NCBI GenBank assembly: GCA_903825435.1
Contig: CAIKAP010000081.1
Location: 13,118-77,117, forward strand
Source: an uncultured Verrucomicrobiota bacterium
GTDB taxonomy: Bacteria; Verrucomicrobiota; Verrucomicrobiia; Palsa-1439
Reading direction: 5' to 3'
Length of the DNA: 64,000 nt
Both the position numbers and the translations under genes were made by a program. Position 1 is the first letter of the stretch. The number at the start of each line of letters is the position of its first letter. The notes beneath the pieces were generated by a model. That model ran no database searches and was not told where the DNA came from. It saw only the letters and a program-made list of their open reading frames with translations. This document shows, one piece after another, positions 1 to 8,115 of this stretch.

Positions 1-2625
1 CCGGATGAACTCGCGCCACGCGTCGCGCAGGTCGTACGTCGTGCCGCGCGCCACGATCATGTTGCCGCCGAAGTTGGCGAGCCGCTGCGTCTGCGGCACG
101 AACAGTTCCCACTCCGCGTACGTCGTCTGCATGTCCGTCACCGGTGCCGACAGCGCCAGCTCGCGCGGCCAGAGCGATTTCAGAGAGCCGACCGATTTCT
201 TGTACACGATGTCCACCGCAAACGCCTCGTCGCGGTTGACGCCGCGCGGCAACGGCACCAGCAGTTTGTCGCCGCTGCGCTCCGGTTTCGCCGGCTCGCT
301 GCGGACGTAGCACGACCAGAACTCCGCGCCCGTGGGCAGCGTGAAGCTCTGGAATTGTTTGTCGTTGTTTTTCACGAGGAACGACGCCTGCGTCAGCGTC
401 TGGCCGTCCTCGGTCACCACCGTCGTCAACTGCGTCCGGTCCGCCACCGCCTCCAGCACCGGCAGTTCCTCGAACCGCGTGACCTCGGTGATGACTTCGT
501 ACGCGTCGCCCGTGTACTGGTACGCCAGCAACACCGGCCGTGTGATCAACGCCCGGTCGTGCGCCGCCAGTTCGCCCTCGTCCACGCGGCGAATCGTCGC
601 CGCCGGCGCAGCAGGAACATTTCCGGAACTTGACGCCGGCACGGTCGCTTCGACGCCGGCGCTCTTTTTGCCCTCGGCAATCTGCAAATTCGAGGCGCTG
701 GTGACGGCGATGCTGCCGGTCTCGCGCTCGACACCGGCGCAATGGATGCCGCCGACCGGCAACGCGGCCTTGTGCGGATCGAACTGCATATCGTACGTCA
801 CGACGAGCGTGTAGCCGCCCCACGCTTTCTCCTGGAGACCGATGACCCAGACGTCGCCCTGTTGTTCCTTGCGCCGGATGTTCGGCCCGGTGAAATCAAT
901 GTTCTTCCAGAGCGCCGGTAGCTTGAGGCGAAACTCCTGCACGCCTTGGTTGAGGATGGCGTAGCGAATCGTCGCACTGCCGCCGACAATGCCGTCGCCG
1001 ACGGTGACGAGGTTGAAGATGTCGGCGGTGATCCGCGCGGCGAGCCGCTCGGCGGTCAACGTCAGTTTCCAGTCCGCCTGCTCGGCGTTGTAGGCGAGCA
1101 CCTCGTCGGTGCGGTTCGCCAGCAAATTGATCGGGACTTCGCGCAACCCGGCAAGGCCGTCCGCCGCCGTCTTGATCTGGATGCCCGCTGCCGCCGCCAC
1201 GCCGACTTGCGCCGTCTCCTTCGCCGCGCCGGTCAGGCGCAACGGCAGGATGACCACCTTACGGATGTTGTCCGTGGGAGCGGTTTGTAACCGCGACTTC
1301 TCCGCCTCCCGGTCGCGGATGGAATCCGCTCCCACAGGAGTAAGCGCTTGTTCGAGTTGCACGTCCAGCGTCCGTTTGCCGAGCACCCGGCTCGCAAACG
1401 TCACCGTCAATTTGCCGCCGGAAGATTTCCAGTCCTCGACGCCTTCGCCGCGCACGTCGGCCACGACGAACCCGGTCTGCGGCGCGAGTTCGAGCGCGTA
1501 GATACCGGCTTTCTCGACGCTGAGCGACAGCGCGTGCGTGACCAGCAACCGCGATTCCTCCAGCCGCGTCGTCACCCGGTCCACCACGTTCACCACCGGC
1601 TCAATCCGGCGCAGTTTCAACGCCAGCCCGATGGGCCGCGCGTGGAACTGGTACGCCGCGAGTGCGCCCGCCGCCGCGTTGACTTGGCGCAGGCCGTCTG
1701 CCTTCTCGATCTCGACAAGCACGTCCTCCGCCGACACGGTCAGCGCACCCGCTTCGCGCTCGACTTCGAGCGGTTGCGGCGGCACGACGCCCACCGTCGC
1801 CGCCGCGCTCTCGACCGTCTGCTCCGAGAACAACGTCAGCGCGTAGTTCTTCTCAACAGGACGGACAAACTCGATGACAAGCGTCTGCTCCTTCACCTGC
1901 CAGTCGCGGACGTTCTCGCCTTGCAGCTTCGTGAGCGCCTGGTTCGGCGGCAACGTGACTTGGAGCTGTTTGATGCTTCCCTGGACGACCTCGTACCGCA
2001 ACGCCGTGTTGTACTTCACCACCGTCGGCGTGATCTGGACCGCGACGACGGAGTCGCACGTCAGCAACGCCTTCCGCGCGACCTCGGCGATCTTGCTTTG
2101 CCAGCGGAGCGCGACGGTCTGCTCCGCGCCGAGGAACCCGGCGACGCGCGCCGCGCCGCTGTCCGACACCGTGCCCTTGAGCAACTGCACCTCAACGCCT
2201 TCGCCCGCCGCCTGCGCCTTCACCGACGCGATGGCGGCGACAGGCCCGTTGAACGTGATCTGGTTCCACGGCTCGGCCCGCGTGATCTTGGCGAGCAGGT
2301 CGAGCTTGAGTTTGTGACGGCCTTCCTTGGTGATGACGAGCGTGTACGCCGGGCCTTTGCGCTCCAGCGTCACTCCCTCCGGGAACTTCGAGGTCAACAC
2401 CGCCACGTCGCCGTCGAACAACGGCACCGCGGCCTCGCCCTTGCCCGTGACCTGCACGTCCACCTCGGCGGTGAACCGCGCCTCGGTGTCGGAGAGCTTG
2501 CCGTCGTAACGCACCTCGCGCACCGTCACGTCCGGTTCCGGCGTCGGCAACGGAGGCGCATCATTGGCAAAGAGATTGGCGGCGAACAGAACGGAAGCGA
2601 TCAGACAAGTGAACCGGCGCATGGC
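1..2625 (-). CDS. large secreted hypothetical protein (partial, C-terminus beyond window start)
   Basis: minus-strand ATG at 2623-2625 preceded by GGAGGA; N-terminus MRRFTCLIASVLFAANLFA is signal-peptide-like; minus frame appears open to position 1 while every plus-strand ORF here is an Arg-rich antisense artefact; absent from ORF track because its stop lies outside the window. Confidence 0.55.
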
Positions 2626-2708
2626 GTCCTCCATCGTTAGAGTTATTGTACTCACGCCAGCAGTCTAACATCATACTGAGCCATCTGTTAAGTAAAAGAC
2701 CTGTAAAA

Positions 2709-2731
2709 ATGTTCCGGCTTTGTTCCGGCTG
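2709..2731 (+). repeat. GTTCCGG direct-repeat element (ATGTTCCGGCTTTGTTCCGGCTG)
   Basis: two GTTCCGG heptamers 11 bp apart; member of a 13-copy family in this window; lies in the promoter region of the secreted-protein gene. Confidence 0.8.
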
Positions 2732-2904
2732 CCCTGTCAAAAAATCAGAAGGCCGCGCCAGCGGCGCGATCTCCTTGTGATGATGCTGTTGCCGTCTTAC
2801 GGCACGGTGACCAACGCGGGATCGCTCCAGCCACCGGTATTATGGCTGCCTTTGGCGGCGACACGCATTCAGACACGGCTGACCGGCGGCGCAACGAAGC
2901 CGTG

Positions 2905-3040
2905 TTGCTGGTGAACAACGTCGTTTCGTTCCGGGGAGATGCACTGTTGTCGTTGAACAACGCGCCATTGTCGTCGAACCTACTGGCATTGTCGTTAAAC
3001 AATGCGGCGTTGTTCTCGAACAAAATGACGTTGTTCCATC
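2905..3040. repeat. array of ~6 tandem 21-bp units each containing a TTGT(C/T)(G/C)T-N2-GAACAA inverted-repeat site (iteron/operator-like)
   Basis: TTGTCGTTGAACAA at 2947, TTGTCGTCGAACC at 2968, TTGTCGTTAAACAA at 2989, TTGTTCTCGAACAA at 3010 (perfect 6-2-6 palindrome), degenerate units at 2905, 2926, 3031; spacing exactly 21 bp. Confidence 0.75.
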
Positions 3041-3222
3041 ACTTTTCCGCCTTGATCAACGCTGGAAAGACCGCATTTCAAGCAACTTACACGCTTTTAC
3101 CAGAAAACAGGCTACCGGTGAGATGGTCAAGTGGTCAGCGCCTGCCCGCCGTCCCACCATCCGTTGGTATCCGGGCAAAAAATAGCGGCAAGTCACTTCC
3201 CAGCGAACTCAAATTAAGCGTG

Positions 3223-6039
3223 CTAGAGCTGCCGCGATTTCCGTTTTGGTCGAGCCGCCGCGACGAGCGGGGCGGTGATCTTTTCGTAGAGGGCGAACAG
3301 GTATTCGACGCGGTGGCGGTCGCTCGCGAATGGTTCGGGCCGGTAACAGCGATCCACGGCGCGGTCGAGGGCTTGATGCGCTTTCAACAGCGGCGCGGGC
3401 ATCGTCAACGGATCGTAGAGATCGGCCAGCGTCGCGGTCGGATACTGCGCCCGCGCGTCCAACACCGCCTGCGCCGCCGCGGCCACCGCCGCCCGCTGCT
3501 TCTCCGTCACCGCCCCCGGCCACGAATACGTGTTGTAAACCATGCTGCCAGAATACCGGTAATCTGACTTCAACCGACCGCCGACTTGCCTTACCCACGC
3601 CATGTGCATTGCCGACGTGAGCACGCCGAAAAGGTAAAGGCTGTCTGATGGCACGAGGAAATTCGTGTTTGCCGAAATCACAGTCGGTGACATGAAGCCG
3701 ATGGGAATGTAGTTGCGACGCTCGGAAGAAACTTCCGGAATGAGGATGTATTTGGTTGCCGGCTGCGAGATATAAAAGAACAGCGTTGGTGTCTGCGCGG
3801 CTTTGCGCGTGGGTGCAGCGGTGCTTTTCGCGCGGAACTCTTTCACAGCTTGCACGCGCTTCATGACTTCAGGCAAGTCGCGAAACTCTGACGGGCTGGC
3901 GTCCTTGAGCCAGAGACACCAGCGCATGTTGCCGTTGATGAATTCTTCGGAGCCGGTAAAGCGTTTGAGAAATTTCACGGCTCCCGGCTCGACGGCGAGG
4001 AGTTCCTTCTTCTCGGCGTCAGTGAGGATGAAGTTACCGCCGTCAGACGGCTTGTTACCGCAACGCATCTCAGGCACGTCCGCAAGTGGTGTGGTGCGCT
4101 TGGTGACGAAGCTATCGGAGCCGGGAGTCAGATACGGGCTGATGTTGGCGGCTTCGCTGACGACCGGATGCTCATCGTCGGTGTCGTAGTCGTAGATGCG
4201 CTTGTTGCCGGTGTCGAATGCGCCGAAGCCGATGATAACGACGTGAACGTGTGCCTTGCCGCGCGCTTCGCTTTCCCAAGCGAAGGTGCGGTGCGCGAAG
4301 TGAATCTTCACCCGGTAACGGCCAAAGAGTAGCCCCCAAACGATTGGGACTTGCTCGCCTTGCGTGATGGAGTTGGTGGCGACCAAGCCGACGCGGATCT
4401 GCGTGCCCTGAATATATTCGGCGGCCCGGTAGAACCACGAGACGACGTAATCCATGTCGCCGGTATTCTTGAAGTCACGGAAAACGATAGCCATGTCAGC
4501 ATGTTGGTCGGCATTTTGGTAATGCTTTCCAACGAACGGCGGATTGCCGAGGACGAAGGAGCATTGATCGGGCGGCAGGACGGTGCGCCAGTCGGTGCGA
4601 AGCGCGTTGCCGACTTGGATTGTCGGCTTGGCGCGGAGCGGCAGGCGTTGGTACATCTGACCGAAGGCTTGCGAGAGCGCGACGTTGGCTTGGTGGTCGG
4701 TGAGCCAGAGCGCAACCTCGGCGATGCGTGCCGGGAATTCCTCGACTTCGATGCCGTAGAACTGGTGAACGTTCAACTTGGAAAGCTGGTTCACGGCGTC
4801 GAGGGACATCTCGTGTTGCGCGCCGTGGAGTTCGAGGAGGACTTCGAGTTCGAGTTTGCGGAGTTCGCGGTAGGTGAGGACGAGGAAGTTGCCGCAGCCG
4901 CAGGCGGGATCGAGGAAGCGGAGTTTGCTGAGCTTGTCGTGAAACTCCTGGAGGCGCGCGGTGCGGCGGGTGGACCGGTCGGCTTTGATGGTCTCGAACT
5001 CGGCGCGGAGGTCGTCGAGGAACAGGGAGCGGATGAGTTTGAGGATGTTCTTCTCGGCGGTGTAGTGCGCGCCGATCTGGCGGCGGGCCTTGCTGTCCAT
5101 GACGGCTTGGAACAGCGAGCCGAAGACGGCGGGGGAGATGGTTTCCCAGCGGAAGGCGCAGCAGGCGAGGAGGCCGTTGCGCATGTCGGCGTTGAACTCG
5201 GCGAATTCGAGGTGCTCGGCAAAGAGGTCGCCGTTGACGTAGGGGAACTGGCTGAGTTCCTCGTCGAGTTTCTTCTGGCGTTGTGGGGTGTCGGTGTTGA
5301 GGACGCGGAAGAGTTGTTCGAGGCGGACACCGAGATCGGAGCCGTCCTCGGCAGTGCGGTCGCGGATGAAGAGTTCGAAGGCTTTCTGGGGGAAGATGCC
5401 GTTGTCCTCTGCGAAAAGACAGAAAAGGATGCGGACGAGGAAGCGTTTGAGTTCGTGGCCGGTATAGCCGCCCGTTTCCAACGCGTCGTGCAAGTCGCAC
5501 ATGAGTTGCGTGGCGACGAGGTTGGCGGGGTCTTCGGGATTGAGCCGGTGATGGGTATAGCCGGCGATAAAAGCGAAGTGGCGGACGTGCTTGTGGAGTT
5601 CCGTCAGTGGAAATTCGATGGTGGGCGGGAGGCGCTGGAACAAAGGTGCGTCAGGGTCTTGCTCCGGCTCCAGATCGTGAATAGCGATGCGGGCGAAGTC
5701 GGAGACAATCAGCCAGCGGGGAATCTCGCGGTCACGGCCGGTATCCTTGAGACCGCGGATGTAGGCCATGCCTTGCGCGTGGGCCTTGCCGAGTTCTGCC
5801 CCAGCGGACTTGTGCTCGACGAGCAATCGCCCCGGCCAAAACAGGTCAATGAATCCCCAATCGCCGGAGAGTTTCTTGACCGGCTCCTCGAACGTGGCAA
5901 CGGTGCGGCGGCGGACGCCAAAGACGTTGAAGAACTCATTCCAGAAGGTTTGGCGCTCGGCGGCTTCACGCGTTTCGCCTTTCCAGTCTTTGCTAAAGGC
6001 GATGGCGCGGTGGCGAATCTCATTCCATGACAGCGGCAT
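3223..6039 (-). CDS. MmeI-family Type IIL restriction-modification enzyme (N-terminal PD-(D/E)XK nuclease + gamma-class N6-adenine methyltransferase + TRD in one chain)
   Basis: 938 aa; N-terminus MPLSWNEIRHRAIAFSKDWKG and FIDLFWPGRLLVEHKS (D-X9-EXK) align with MmeI; motif I LDPACGCGNFL; motif IV NPPF; GAHYT motif X. Confidence 0.85.
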   Translation of the reverse strand: MPLSWNEIRHRAIAFSKDWKGETREAAERQTFWNEFFNVFGVRRRTVATFEEPVKKLSGDWGFIDLFWPGRLLVEHKSAGAELGKAHAQGMAYIRGLKDTGRDREIPRWLIVSDFARIAIHDLEPEQDPDAPLFQRLPPTIEFPLTELHKHVRHFAFIAGYTHHRLNPEDPANLVATQLMCDLHDALETGGYTGHELKRFLVRILFCLFAEDNGIFPQKAFELFIRDRTAEDGSDLGVRLEQLFRVLNTDTPQRQKKLDEELSQFPYVNGDLFAEHLEFAEFNADMRNGLLACCAFRWETISPAVFGSLFQAVMDSKARRQIGAHYTAEKNILKLIRSLFLDDLRAEFETIKADRSTRRTARLQEFHDKLSKLRFLDPACGCGNFLVLTYRELRKLELEVLLELHGAQHEMSLDAVNQLSKLNVHQFYGIEVEEFPARIAEVALWLTDHQANVALSQAFGQMYQRLPLRAKPTIQVGNALRTDWRTVLPPDQCSFVLGNPPFVGKHYQNADQHADMAIVFRDFKNTGDMDYVVSWFYRAAEYIQGTQIRVGLVATNSITQGEQVPIVWGLLFGRYRVKIHFAHRTFAWESEARGKAHVHVVIIGFGAFDTGNKRIYDYDTDDEHPVVSEAANISPYLTPGSDSFVTKRTTPLADVPEMRCGNKPSDGGNFILTDAEKKELLAVEPGAVKFLKRFTGSEEFINGNMRWCLWLKDASPSEFRDLPEVMKRVQAVKEFRAKSTAAPTRKAAQTPTLFFYISQPATKYILIPEVSSERRNYIPIGFMSPTVISANTNFLVPSDSLYLFGVLTSAMHMAWVRQVGGRLKSDYRYSGSMVYNTYSWPGAVTEKQRAAVAAAAQAVLDARAQYPTATLADLYDPLTMPAPLLKAHQALDRAVDRCYRPEPFASDRHRVEYLFALYEKITAPLVAAARPKRKSRQL

Positions 6040-6246
6040 GGCGACGGAGTGTAGTCGGTAGGAAAGAGCAGGACAAGCACGATGCTTATCCGACGCGGAC
6101 GCCTCAGCGAGGCGTTCCTACCAACAACCAGAATCGCAGTTCCGGCAATAGGCCCGATTGACGTTGACGGCGCAATCAGGCCGTGATGAACGCTGCCGAT
6201 CTGGTATTACGGTGAATAATTGGCTTCAAGAAATGTCCAAAAGCAA

Positions 6247-8115
6247 ATGAAGAAGATGAATTACTTGATACTCATCAGTATTGCTTTGACCGCGCTAGCG
6301 AATGCCGCGGAAAACGTCACCCCAAAAGTCGCCGACGCGCTCGTGTCGCCACGGCCGGGTAGCGTGACGTTTACCGGCTGGTTGGGCGAAAATCTGGAGA
6401 CTTGCAGACAGGGGCGAATCTTCGGCCAAAGCGTGCCCGACTTGGTTAGGCCGTTTGCGGTGCGCGAGGAGGACAAGATGTGGCGTTGCGAGTTTTGGGG
6501 CAAATGGTTCACCTCGGCCGCGCTTGCCTATCGGTACCAGGCCGATCCAAAACTGCATGCCATTCTTGATGAAGCCGTCACAGGCCTGCTAGCCACGCAA
6601 ACGTCCGACGGTGGAATCACGACCTACAAACCGGCTGCGGAGTTTTCCAACTGGGACACCTGGGGCCGCAAATACAGTTTGCTCGGCCTGTTGGCGTACT
6701 ATGACCTGACTGGTGATGCCAAAACACTCGACGCCGCATGCCGGCACGCTGACCGTGTCCTCAAACAATTCGGACCAGACAAGGCCGACATTGCTGCCAA
6801 TGGTTGGTGGACCGGCATGGCCGCCAGCAGCATCCTCGAACCGATGGTGTTGCTCTACCGCCGCACCGGTGACGAGCGGTACCTGCGTTTTGCCGAGTAC
6901 ATCGTCCAGTCGTGGGAAGGCCCGAAAGGCCCCGACCTCGTCCGTAAGGCGCTTGCCGGTACGGCGGTCTTCAAGATGTTTCCCGGCCCCGATCCGAAAC
7001 AGAAAGGTTACATGGGCGGCGGTTCCTCAAAAGCCTACGAAATGATGTCCTGCTACGAGGGCTTGGTTGAACTCCATCGCGTCACCGGCGAACCGAAGTA
7101 CCTAGAAGCAGCTCAGAAAGTCTTTGCCAGTATTCGCGACACCGAGATCACATTTATTGGTTCCGGTTCGAATTGGGAACGTTGGTGCAACGGCCGCGCG
7201 CGCCAAATCGAACCGTTACCGGAATGGATGGAAACATGCGTCACGGTGACGTGGATTAAGTTAGCCGCGCAGCTCCTGTGCGCGACCGGCGACCCGCGTT
7301 ACGCCGACGAAATAGAACGGAGCGTTTACAACGCGCTGTTGGGCGCACAGAAAGACGACGGCACGTGGTGGTGTCATTACAACCCACTCGAAGGCCGGCG
7401 CAGGGCTGCACCCGAGCATTGCAAGATGCATCAGAATTGTTGCGTCGCCAACGGCCCGCGCGGCCTGATGTTATTGCCGACGCTGGCTGTGATGACCAGC
7501 AAGGATGGCCCCGTCGTAAATCTCTATGAGCCATGCAAGACGACACTCCTCGACATTGACAGCGATTACCCGCGCGACAACGTCGTGGACATCACCATCC
7601 ACCCGCCATCACCACAACACTTCACGCTGAGTCTGCGAATCCCCGCGTGGAGCCGTGCGACCAAACTGGAGGTCAACGGCAAGCCAGTGGCAAACGTTCA
7701 GCCCGGCGCCTACGTGCGGCTGTCGCGCACATGGAAGCAGGGCGACAAAGTCCGGCTCACGCTCGATTTCACGGTTCATTGCGAGAAAGACCCCGGCGGC
7801 TCCGGCCGCGTGGCGATCACGCGCGGTCCGGTGGTGTTCGCGCTCGACAAGAGGATCGCGAACCCGTCGACAGGCGAAGGCGTGGTAATGGCTGCCGCAG
7901 ACGGCAGCGTGAAAGCTGTCGCTGTCAAAACTGACGGCGTGCGGATAACGCTGGACGTGCCGTTCGATACAGGAGGCAAAAATTCGCTGCTGCGGTTTTG
8001 CGACTATGCCTCTGCCGGGCACACGTGGGCAGAAGACTCCATGCTGCGGGTTTGGCTGCCGCAGCCGCTGAACCTAGCGGACCCGTTTGCCGGTATCGCG
8101 CCGAAAAAGAAATGA
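6247..8115 (+). CDS. glycoside hydrolase family 127 (beta-L-arabinofuranosidase-like, DUF1680) with signal peptide
   Basis: signal peptide MKKMNYLILISIALTALANA; GH127-type Cys cluster HCKMHQNCCVANGPRG; length ~620 aa; start chosen at internal ATG 6247 (ORF opens at 6220). Confidence 0.65.
   Translation: MKKMNYLILISIALTALANAAENVTPKVADALVSPRPGSVTFTGWLGENLETCRQGRIFGQSVPDLVRPFAVREEDKMWRCEFWGKWFTSAALAYRYQADPKLHAILDEAVTGLLATQTSDGGITTYKPAAEFSNWDTWGRKYSLLGLLAYYDLTGDAKTLDAACRHADRVLKQFGPDKADIAANGWWTGMAASSILEPMVLLYRRTGDERYLRFAEYIVQSWEGPKGPDLVRKALAGTAVFKMFPGPDPKQKGYMGGGSSKAYEMMSCYEGLVELHRVTGEPKYLEAAQKVFASIRDTEITFIGSGSNWERWCNGRARQIEPLPEWMETCVTVTWIKLAAQLLCATGDPRYADEIERSVYNALLGAQKDDGTWWCHYNPLEGRRRAAPEHCKMHQNCCVANGPRGLMLLPTLAVMTSKDGPVVNLYEPCKTTLLDIDSDYPRDNVVDITIHPPSPQHFTLSLRIPAWSRATKLEVNGKPVANVQPGAYVRLSRTWKQGDKVRLTLDFTVHCEKDPGGSGRVAITRGPVVFALDKRIANPSTGEGVVMAAADGSVKAVAVKTDGVRITLDVPFDTGGKNSLLRFCDYASAGHTWAEDSMLRVWLPQPLNLADPFAGIAPKKK

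Follow-up and report, generated by a model that had tools for sequence, protein, structure and literature searches.

Results

The array and its genomic setting

The DNA analysed here (the window) is a stretch of 64,000 nucleotides from an uncultured Verrucomicrobiota bacterium (GenBank assembly GCA_903825435.1, contig CAIKAP010000081.1), and its subject is a tandem array of 21-bp units at positions 2905..3051. The array lies where a first-pass annotation of the sequence had placed it, between two minus-strand genes. On one side is an MmeI-family type IIL restriction-modification gene (3223..6039), with Pfam matches to MmeI_N, MmeI_hel, MmeI_Mtase, MmeI_TRD and MmeI_C (E-values 1e-24 to 1e-89). 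On the other is a gene for a secreted protein of 2304 amino acids, which starts at 2623; its N-terminal part, with a signal peptide, occupies 1-2623 of the window, and the protein had no match in Pfam. With a GH127 gene, these make up the flanking genes; homologues of GH127 assign the organism to the Verrucomicrobiota. The array is the core of a conserved element of 322 bp (2797..3118), overlooked by the first-pass annotation, which we call the orphan array element. Its plus strand is the orientation in which, in intact relatives, a gene for a conserved protein of ~210 amino acids lies downstream; we coined the name fn3-210 for this protein, which combines a helical domain with an fn3 domain. 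The MmeI gene is convergent with this orientation and stands in the place expected for fn3-210, its 3' end 104 nt from the element. An intrinsic terminator just outside the element (2741..2769, minus strand) separates it from the secreted-protein gene.

The array consists of seven head-to-tail units, starting at 2905, 2926, 2947, 2968, 2989, 3010 and 3031, in the exact 21-bp register that had been described and free of insertions and deletions. A period of 21 was called by Tandem Repeats Finder at 2947-3013 (score 69), and the autocorrelation of 2797-3222 was maximal at lags 21 and 42. The usual core is TTGTCGTTGAACAA, followed by a 7-nt linker, and the consensus of 15 units from the window and its paralogue is TTGT(C/T)(G/C)T(N)GAACAA plus nnYGnCn. 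The palindrome was overstated. The unit at 3010 contains a perfect TTGTTC-N2-GAACAA site (3010..3023), as reported, and it is the only one; the other units were said to be 1-2 nt away from it, and the mismatches are 2, 5, 2, 4, 3, 0 and 4 from unit 2905 to unit 3031. In most units the dyad is confined to TTGT/ACAA, so that the core is partly dyad-symmetric, and unit 3031 is a half-site only. The odd unit at 2926..2946 (TCGTTCCGGGGAGATGCACTG), which includes the GTTCCGG half-site noticed at 2928-2934, has lost the palindrome while keeping the 21-bp length, and it is also conserved in the paralogue. Across the window there were nine sites for TTGTTCNNGAACAA with up to 2 mismatches against 2.24 expected, a number reached in 0 of 100 shuffles, and three of the nine are in the array. 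A contig from an independent assembly (L001) matched window 2797-7043 without gaps, and three contigs from the Joint Genome Institute (JGI) agreed on the ten units of the paralogue. The copy number is thus not an assembly artefact, and a collapsed repeat, which had been named as a possible explanation, can be set aside.

The element ends sharply on both sides in the blastn comparison with its paralogue (L002); L001 stops exactly at 2797, and two contigs (L053 and L054) begin within the paralogous element. Its distal part (2797..2904, plus strand) is G+C-rich, keeps the array register without the palindrome, and is 95% identical to L002. Compared by eye with the G+C-rich distal sub-arrays of three intact loci (L023, L066 and L071), it probably consists of decayed units. 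After the array, sequence comparison and a motif search revealed a hairpin at 3061..3083 (plus strand, GCTgGAAA-GACCGCA-TTTCaAGC). Its loop, (A/G)CCGCAT, is conserved in the window, L002 and L023, and its stems vary: they are GGCTGGAA/TTCCAGCC in L002 and GGCTCAA/TTGAGCC in L023, with one G-C to C-G swap. The last conserved motif of the spacer is AAAACAGGCT (3104..3113, plus strand).

Several further observations concern the element boundaries. TTAC stands at the distal boundary beside a sub-terminal hairpin. Homology between the two copies ends exactly at a TAA (window 2798-2800, minus strand; L002 2917-2919), which closes a 23-codon frame, M/V-RVAAKGSHNTGGWSDPALVTVP, which begins with ATG in one of the copies and with GTG in its counterpart. 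Within the frame or immediately before it the copies differ at seven positions, and three of these differences are synonymous in the frame; no ribosome-binding site was evident for it. A programmed frameshift into the conserved TAA frame was considered and rejected, as no slippery site was found. Just beyond the spacer-side boundary, both copies carry the 9-mer ATGGTCAAG (window 3123-3131, plus; L002 ~2496-2504, plus), in opposite orientations relative to the element. This could be chance or a piece of a recombination site.

A second copy, very probably in the same genome

A search with the heptad peptide read from one minus-strand frame through the array (discussed below) returned a single predicted protein, P0001, on JGI contigs, and this led to the paralogue. 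L002 is located after a type I hsdR gene and before obg. In blastn, window 3118..2797 matched L002 2513..2919; identity was 83% towards MmeI/hsdR and 95% in the remaining 238 nt. The paralogue is longer by exactly four units, a difference of 84 nt; the flanks of the two copies are unrelated on both sides, and each copy is followed by a terminator of its own, the two terminators being unrelated. The exact Obg protein of the paralogous locus co-occurred with the window contig in ERZ1426827, ERZ1426560 and the BUCK21-1 samples. Because of these shared assemblies, and because contigs end at or start inside the element, the two copies are very probably repeats within one Verrucomicrobiota genome, each facing the 3' end of a convergent restriction gene. 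When a 20-mer from the distal part was searched for in JGI metagenomes, only the known paralogue and three chance coding matches were found, and in an empty-site comparison through GH127 orthologues the relatives, of ~75% identity, were not syntenic. An obg-linked copy in another assembly (L053 1-30, compared with window 2870-2900) carried the window-type TCTGAATGCGTG and not the L002-type TCTGGGTGCGCG, which suggests gene conversion between the copies or a chimeric assembly at the repeat.

Related arrays precede a conserved protein gene

A pattern scan of one genome per species, looking for two core motifs (TTGTT-N4-RACAA) 21 nt apart, returned at least 40 loci. Among the loci listed, ~20 are true 21-nt arrays with 6-18 units, mostly from Bacteroidota and one from Verrucomicrobiota (L023). 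At ten of these pattern-found arrays a homologous gene of 203-211 amino acids, fn3-210, starts 50-330 nt away, and the array is always upstream of it. The pattern also catches unrelated coding repeats, since one match (L008 4372-4497) lies inside a 757-amino-acid open reading frame and encodes PAFVVEQ-like repeats on the opposite strand. An apparent asymmetry between G-U and A-C in the pattern-found arrays was discarded because it is biased by the pattern itself, and strand folding energies were used instead.

As the forward search was biased by its pattern, a reverse test was run from the protein side with six fn3-210 homologues (P0149, P0168, P0191, P0133, P0151 and P0144), chosen by contig extent alone and regardless of repeats. 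Each of the six was immediately preceded by a period-21 array; these arrays comprise ~15-34 units and leave 43-211 nt to the ATG. The unit sequences differed among the six families, and the period was 21 in every one. Units of AAAAGATCTTTT type alternated with units of ACCATGGT type in L061, L055 units were of the form GGACAA..TTGTCC, a GCAGCGCTGC-type dyad spanned the unit junctions in L058, and the units of L063, L066 and L071 were different again. The register was held over 450-700 bp, including across a 63-nt non-repeat stretch in L061. In 44 kb of unrelated Verrucomicrobia DNA used as a control, there was one period-21 repeat, of 2 copies. Overall, the related arrays have a strict 21-nt period and 6-34 lineage-specific, partly dyad-symmetric units, and lie 40-330 bp upstream of fn3-210. 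Such array-gene modules are spread over at least two and probably three phyla, namely Verrucomicrobiota, Bacteroidota and, as the probable third, Acidobacteriota.

The fn3-210 family had 481 matches at E<=1e-5, every one annotated as hypothetical. Pfam gave only a weak fn3 match, and no family was found in NCBIfam, PHROG or PADLOC. The predicted structure, a confident model (pLDDT 88), has long N-terminal helices and a C-terminal fn3 domain, and structure searches with this model retrieved fn3 domains only. An all-against-all BLAST of the downstream genes revealed no second conserved gene beside fn3-210. The first-pass annotation had suggested looking for helix-turn-helix regulators whose loci carry the palindrome. 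No helix-turn-helix regulator was consistently linked to the arrays; their only conserved partner is the helical and fn3 protein, which is absent from the window.

Other features were noticed at these loci. Contigs with fn3-210 genes (P0129-P0248) are mostly ~0.7-1.5 kb long, consistent with assembly breaks at arrays or with multi-copy loci. In L004 (440-560), the interval that separates the Flavisolibacter array from its fn3-210 gene holds a 19-codon open reading frame, MQIKVFNPMCVKPFLSLII, downstream of a perfect AAGGAGGT, and a flank of 105 nt is common to two arrays of one metagenome-assembled genome (L004 440-560; L016 3129-3233). An 8-nt repeat, GCACCAGC, is present in 12.4 copies in L055 (4500-4598) and in 4.4 copies in L056, two contigs that are otherwise near-identical. 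Two 7-nt arrays that face each other, (GGCGTGA)n and (TCACGCC)n, precede the 21-nt array in L055 (4263-4335).

The window copy lacks the promoter and the gene

Read in gene orientation, the relatives look like the plus strand of the window. The core of L024 is identical to that of the window, TTGTCGTTGAACAA, and that of L021 is TTGTCGTAGAACAA. The post-array spacer, CCGCATTT-N25/26-AAAACAGGCT with its hairpin, is common to the window, L002 and L023, the last being the only intact locus that shares it closely. In the intact loci L023 and L066, AAAACAGGCT is followed by TTTTCCAG, a (TA)nnTTTG element, a C/A-rich leader and the ATG; we take TAnnTTTG to be the Bacteroidetes-type -7 promoter box. 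In both the window and L002 the homology ends at ACCGG (3118 in the window), ~55-60 nt short of the expected ATG, and a six-frame profile search of the window found no fn3-210 homologue. For these two reasons the window copy, judged by sequence comparison, is an orphan, a truncated element without promoter and gene, and not a complete member of the family. Both copies break at the identical point, which implies that they descend from one already-truncated element or that a crossover point was reused. Because they are cut between array and promoter and abut convergent restriction genes, the array in the window is probably a relic, left at the junction of a restriction cassette; at most it would serve for titration or as a boundary.

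The reading of the array as an antisense promoter firing into MmeI was rejected: the element is cut before (TA)nnTTTG and no sigma-70-like site was found. An integration site at a tRNA or tmRNA gene was ruled out as well, the window containing neither.

Restriction and defence genes beside the arrays

Restriction or defence genes adjoin seven of ~15 loci, and the ~8 others have ordinary neighbours. Besides MmeI in the window and HsdR in L002, these are an HNH endonuclease in L023; a C protein (the restriction-modification controller), a C5 methylase, a 316-amino-acid open reading frame and Vsr in L066-70; a C protein, a methylase and a PDC-M33A-like protein in L071; Mrr in L025; and a WYL protein with a 1715-amino-acid DEAD/ResIII/MZB helicase in L036. 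The association of arrays with defence genes is suggestive. Strain variants (L069 against L066; L072 and L073 against L071) diverge 60-110 nt into the C-protein gene, at L066 ~5005 against L069 4585 and at L071 2644 against L072/L073. Since the strains diverge within this gene, cassette turnover occurs just beyond fn3-210. The pattern suggests an exchange of cassettes whose anchor may be the 5' portion of the C gene or the C-gene operator.

Discussion

A proposed phased DNA platform upstream of fn3-210

The explanation that we prefer, and to which we give about an even chance, is that the array is the core of a 322-bp gene-less and promoter-less copy of a conserved upstream repeat region, and that this region is a DNA-level platform or architecture. 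In intact loci, 6-34 head-to-tail, partly dyad-symmetric units of exactly 21 bp extend to where the putative promoter for a cytoplasmic protein of ~210 amino acids begins. As double-stranded DNA, the units would offer the same kind of site once per two helical turns, always on one side of the helix. They may form a platform on which a sequence-specific factor binds cooperatively, or promoter activity may be set by a bent architecture of the upstream DNA. The adjacent fn3-210 protein is the only conserved candidate for a binder. The module would stand at the border of variable restriction and defence cassettes. The two copies in this genome would have been cut at the same point between array and promoter, each now abutting the convergent 3' end of a restriction gene, MmeI here and hsdR in the other. 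A role at the DNA level is favoured because the exact 21-bp period is conserved while the unit sequences change, because the phase is kept over hundreds of base pairs, because the units are dyads or direct repeats of operator size, and because intact arrays halt at the upstream edge of the promoter-like region. Across the related arrays, phasing at two helical turns looks like the selected property. The earlier suggestion of phased sites survives, as all related arrays found have a period of 21, and together with the position of intact arrays at the promoter-like edge this fits cooperative binding or architectural DNA; the proposed helix-turn-helix partner does not survive.

Several results weigh against this explanation. 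No protein that binds the units was found, the fn3-210 model shows no recognisable DNA-binding fold, and in our own count the N-terminal domain of the L023 protein has about equal numbers of acidic and basic residues. The unit sequence does not follow the protein phylogeny: the window units resemble those of Saprospiraceae, whose proteins are only ~25% identical to the Verrucomicrobiota ones. Among 11 gene-linked arrays there are 7 in which folding favours one strand, the one antisense to the gene, by 4-32 kcal/mol; this could reflect RNA or base skew alone. The spacer hairpin, with its conserved loop and variable stem, is more RNA-like than operator-like. A coding origin in heptads would also yield a 21-bp period. 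The placing of both copies in one genome comes from co-occurrence in assemblies and not from a closed genome, and the defence association comes from ~15 loci without a formal background test.

A bolder extension, for which we see perhaps one chance in several, is that the array and fn3-210 together form a new module of defence islands. It might be a control or immunity device for neighbouring restriction systems, either a protein filament on the phased DNA repeats or a pair of repeat RNA and protein that parallels type III toxin-antitoxins, or else the landing or exchange site used in swapping restriction cassettes. If so, orphan arrays would stay functional as boundary or titration sites for the restriction genes that they abut.

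RNA, mobile and coding alternatives

The first alternative, unlikely in our judgement yet still among the stronger ones, is that the array is transcribed. Read from the minus strand, it would either form the 3' portion of the MmeI mRNA or belong to an independent transcript terminated at 2741-2769. The RNA would fold as a series of short hairpins, or as a single long and imperfect one, and would serve to bind a protein, to stabilise the transcript or to insulate it. At intact loci the RNA would be divergent from the gene or antisense. Intrinsic terminators, unrelated to each other, do follow both copies on the minus strand, and the minus-strand units allow 5-bp stems with U-G pairs. Folding z-scores were -2.6 for the window and -5.4 for L002, but palindromic DNA repeats inherently give low folding energies on both strands, and the arrays of the window and L002 lack strand asymmetry. 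The better folding of the antisense strand in 7 of the 11 gene-linked arrays and the compensatory stem change in the spacer hairpin, with its conserved loop, also speak for RNA. However, an RNA role gives no reason for a strict 21-nt period in units of unrelated sequence, no convincing promoter was seen ahead of the element, and intact arrays lie upstream of the promoter-like element, hence outside the fn3-210 mRNA. No Rfam family matched: with Rfam 15 there was nothing at E<=1 in 2500-3400, and among 19 related loci nothing reached the gathering score except an rRNA fragment.

Somewhat less probable again is a mobile or recombination module, either a non-autonomous element of 322-400 bp or a crossover site of restriction cassettes, whose presence by MmeI and hsdR would reflect how these cassettes arrived. 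Much about the boundaries fits such a module: two copies with sharp, identical ends and unrelated flanks, TTAC with a sub-terminal hairpin at the distal boundary, ATGGTCAAG just outside the other boundary of both copies in opposite orientations, and a terminator directly downstream of each. The defence cassettes downstream of intact modules also vary between strains, and seven of the ~15 loci adjoin restriction or defence genes. The sharp ends, with TTAC and a hairpin at one of them, might reflect an origin as a miniature inverted-repeat transposable element or from IS200-IS605 insertion sequences. However, only two copies are known, no terminal inverted repeats or target-site duplication were found, and no transposase or recombinase was found nearby. 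There were no matches in viral, plasmid and phage collections, and the breakpoints of the strain variants fall in the C-protein gene, not at the array. This alternative is moreover compatible with the phased DNA platform and does not exclude it.

The array could also be read as a small protein gene, a minus-strand open frame at 2745..3023 (from 3023 down to 2745) for a 92-amino-acid peptide of LFxNNxA heptads, (LFxNNxA)n. The period is divisible by 3, neither copy interrupts the frame, the corresponding open reading frame of the paralogue (P0001) was predicted by a gene caller, and a frame of LF type is open in many related arrays, being the sole open one in L023. We nevertheless judge it not to be a gene, and consider its coding role very improbable, as it fails on start, stop and selection. 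It is immediately preceded by a stop codon, and only the TTG of the first unit could serve as a start; the frame reads through the terminator, with C-termini that differ between the copies; and outside the repeats there were 2 synonymous against 6 non-synonymous changes. There was one homologue among 5.8 billion proteins and no Pfam match. The arrays of L004, L016, L027, L019, L058 and L061 are closed in all six frames, and the LF frame runs the same way as the gene in L023 but points away from it in five other loci.

The remaining readings, all from the first-pass annotation, took the array as an operator of the secreted-protein gene, a LexA-like site, or a plasmid iteron or parS, and they have hardly any probability left. 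The repeats are indeed phased and partly palindromic, and the gene starts 280-400 bp downstream of the array. Against control of this gene by the array stand the terminator at 2741-2769 and the gene's own promoter-like site, both of which intervene, and the paralogue, which precedes obg. The LexA binding site of Verrucomicrobia is TGTTC-N4-GAACA (PMC4951493). With up to 2 mismatches it was absent from 2797-3118 and occurred 27 times across the window against 25.6 expected, and the arm spacing in the array is N2. As for plasmid origins or partition sites, no rep or par genes adjoin the array; among the flanking genes in the window, L002 and the intact loci there was no parA/parB or parM/parR, and there were no matches in 72,556 PLSDB plasmids, 50,697 phages or the viral collections.

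Comparison with known repeat systems

Plasmid origins, centromeres and operators all provide known examples of phased repeat arrays. One close likeness is to plasmid iterons and multi-site operator arrays, such as the 17-22-bp iterons of R6K, pSC101, P1 and RK2, which share head-to-tail units of ~21 bp in helical phase, from a few units to dozens, next to the start of one gene and with sequences that differ between lineages. The arrays described here differ from iterons in that neither a Rep initiator nor a plasmid context accompanies them and an AT-rich or DnaA-box region is missing. Their partner is a helical and fn3 protein, they reach up to 34 units and lie on chromosomes, and in the window the partner gene is absent altogether. 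Partition centromeres (F sopC, 12 x 43 bp with an inverted repeat in each; R1 parC, 10 x 11 bp) are likewise tandem dyad units, cooperatively bound into a higher-order complex, and lie beside the operon of their binder, doubling as its operator. In contrast, the present units are of 21 bp, no gene for a ParA, ParM or TubZ motor or for a ParB- or ParR-type adaptor is adjacent, and several arrays can occur per chromosome, some of them gene-less.

Type III toxin-antitoxin systems, in which ToxI (36 nt x 5.5) stands upstream of toxN, are similar in the placing of a non-coding array before a small protein gene and in their defence neighbourhoods, and the window array is likewise followed by a terminator. 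However, their repeats are 34-45-nt pseudoknots and the units here are of 21 nt, fn3-210 is not ToxN/AbiQ-like, and intact arrays appear upstream of the promoter. No toxin of the ToxN, AbiQ, CptN or TenpN type was found downstream of the window and L002 arrays, where the genes encode the secreted protein and Obg, respectively. The operators of C proteins (C-boxes) are also dyad sites at restriction-modification loci, where they set the timing and level of expression, and true C-protein genes follow fn3-210 in L066 and L071. C-boxes are one or two operators immediately before the C gene, whereas 6-34 phased units here precede another gene, and the window array lies beyond the 3' end of the restriction gene. 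Intergenic minisatellites, such as the mycobacterial interspersed repetitive units typed by variable copy number (MIRU-VNTR), are alike in that copies differ in number (6-7 against 10 units). The link to a gene family, the fixed 21-bp period and a dyad symmetry conserved across phyla distinguish the present arrays and would be unexpected if they were neutral.

The apparent novelty lies in a chromosomal array, up to 34 units long, that has kept its 21-bp period in at least two, and probably three, phyla while its sequence drifts, that is tied to one uncharacterised protein family with hundreds of members, and that recurs by restriction and defence genes. No description of this array-gene module was found in the searchable literature, Rfam, Pfam, NCBIfam or PADLOC. 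If it is a regulatory or boundary device for restriction cassettes, it would be a new element in the organisation and exchange of defence islands, and the same reading would account for the frequent assembly breaks at such loci. The window array alone, as a probable relic, has modest immediate biological weight. A cultured carrier, Mangrovibacterium lignilyticum BM_7 (L012), makes the module directly testable.

A further repeat in the window

A direct repeat, TGTTCCGG-N3-TGTTCCGG, occurs at 13 sites in the 64 kb, 11 of them perfect, against 0.14 expected. One site lies at 2710-2728, and the others are at 612, 18386, 20321, 26306, 29729, 35044, 36527, 39272, 46919, 52825, 56910 and 63663. They are found on both strands, at promoter-like spots, in the gaps between convergent genes and inside open reading frames, often with caccggcgtca on the 5' side. 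This looks like a motif dispersed genome-wide, such as a regulator site or a signal resembling uptake sequences or repetitive extragenic palindromes (REP). The odd array unit at 2926 bears one near half-copy of it (CGTTCCGG).

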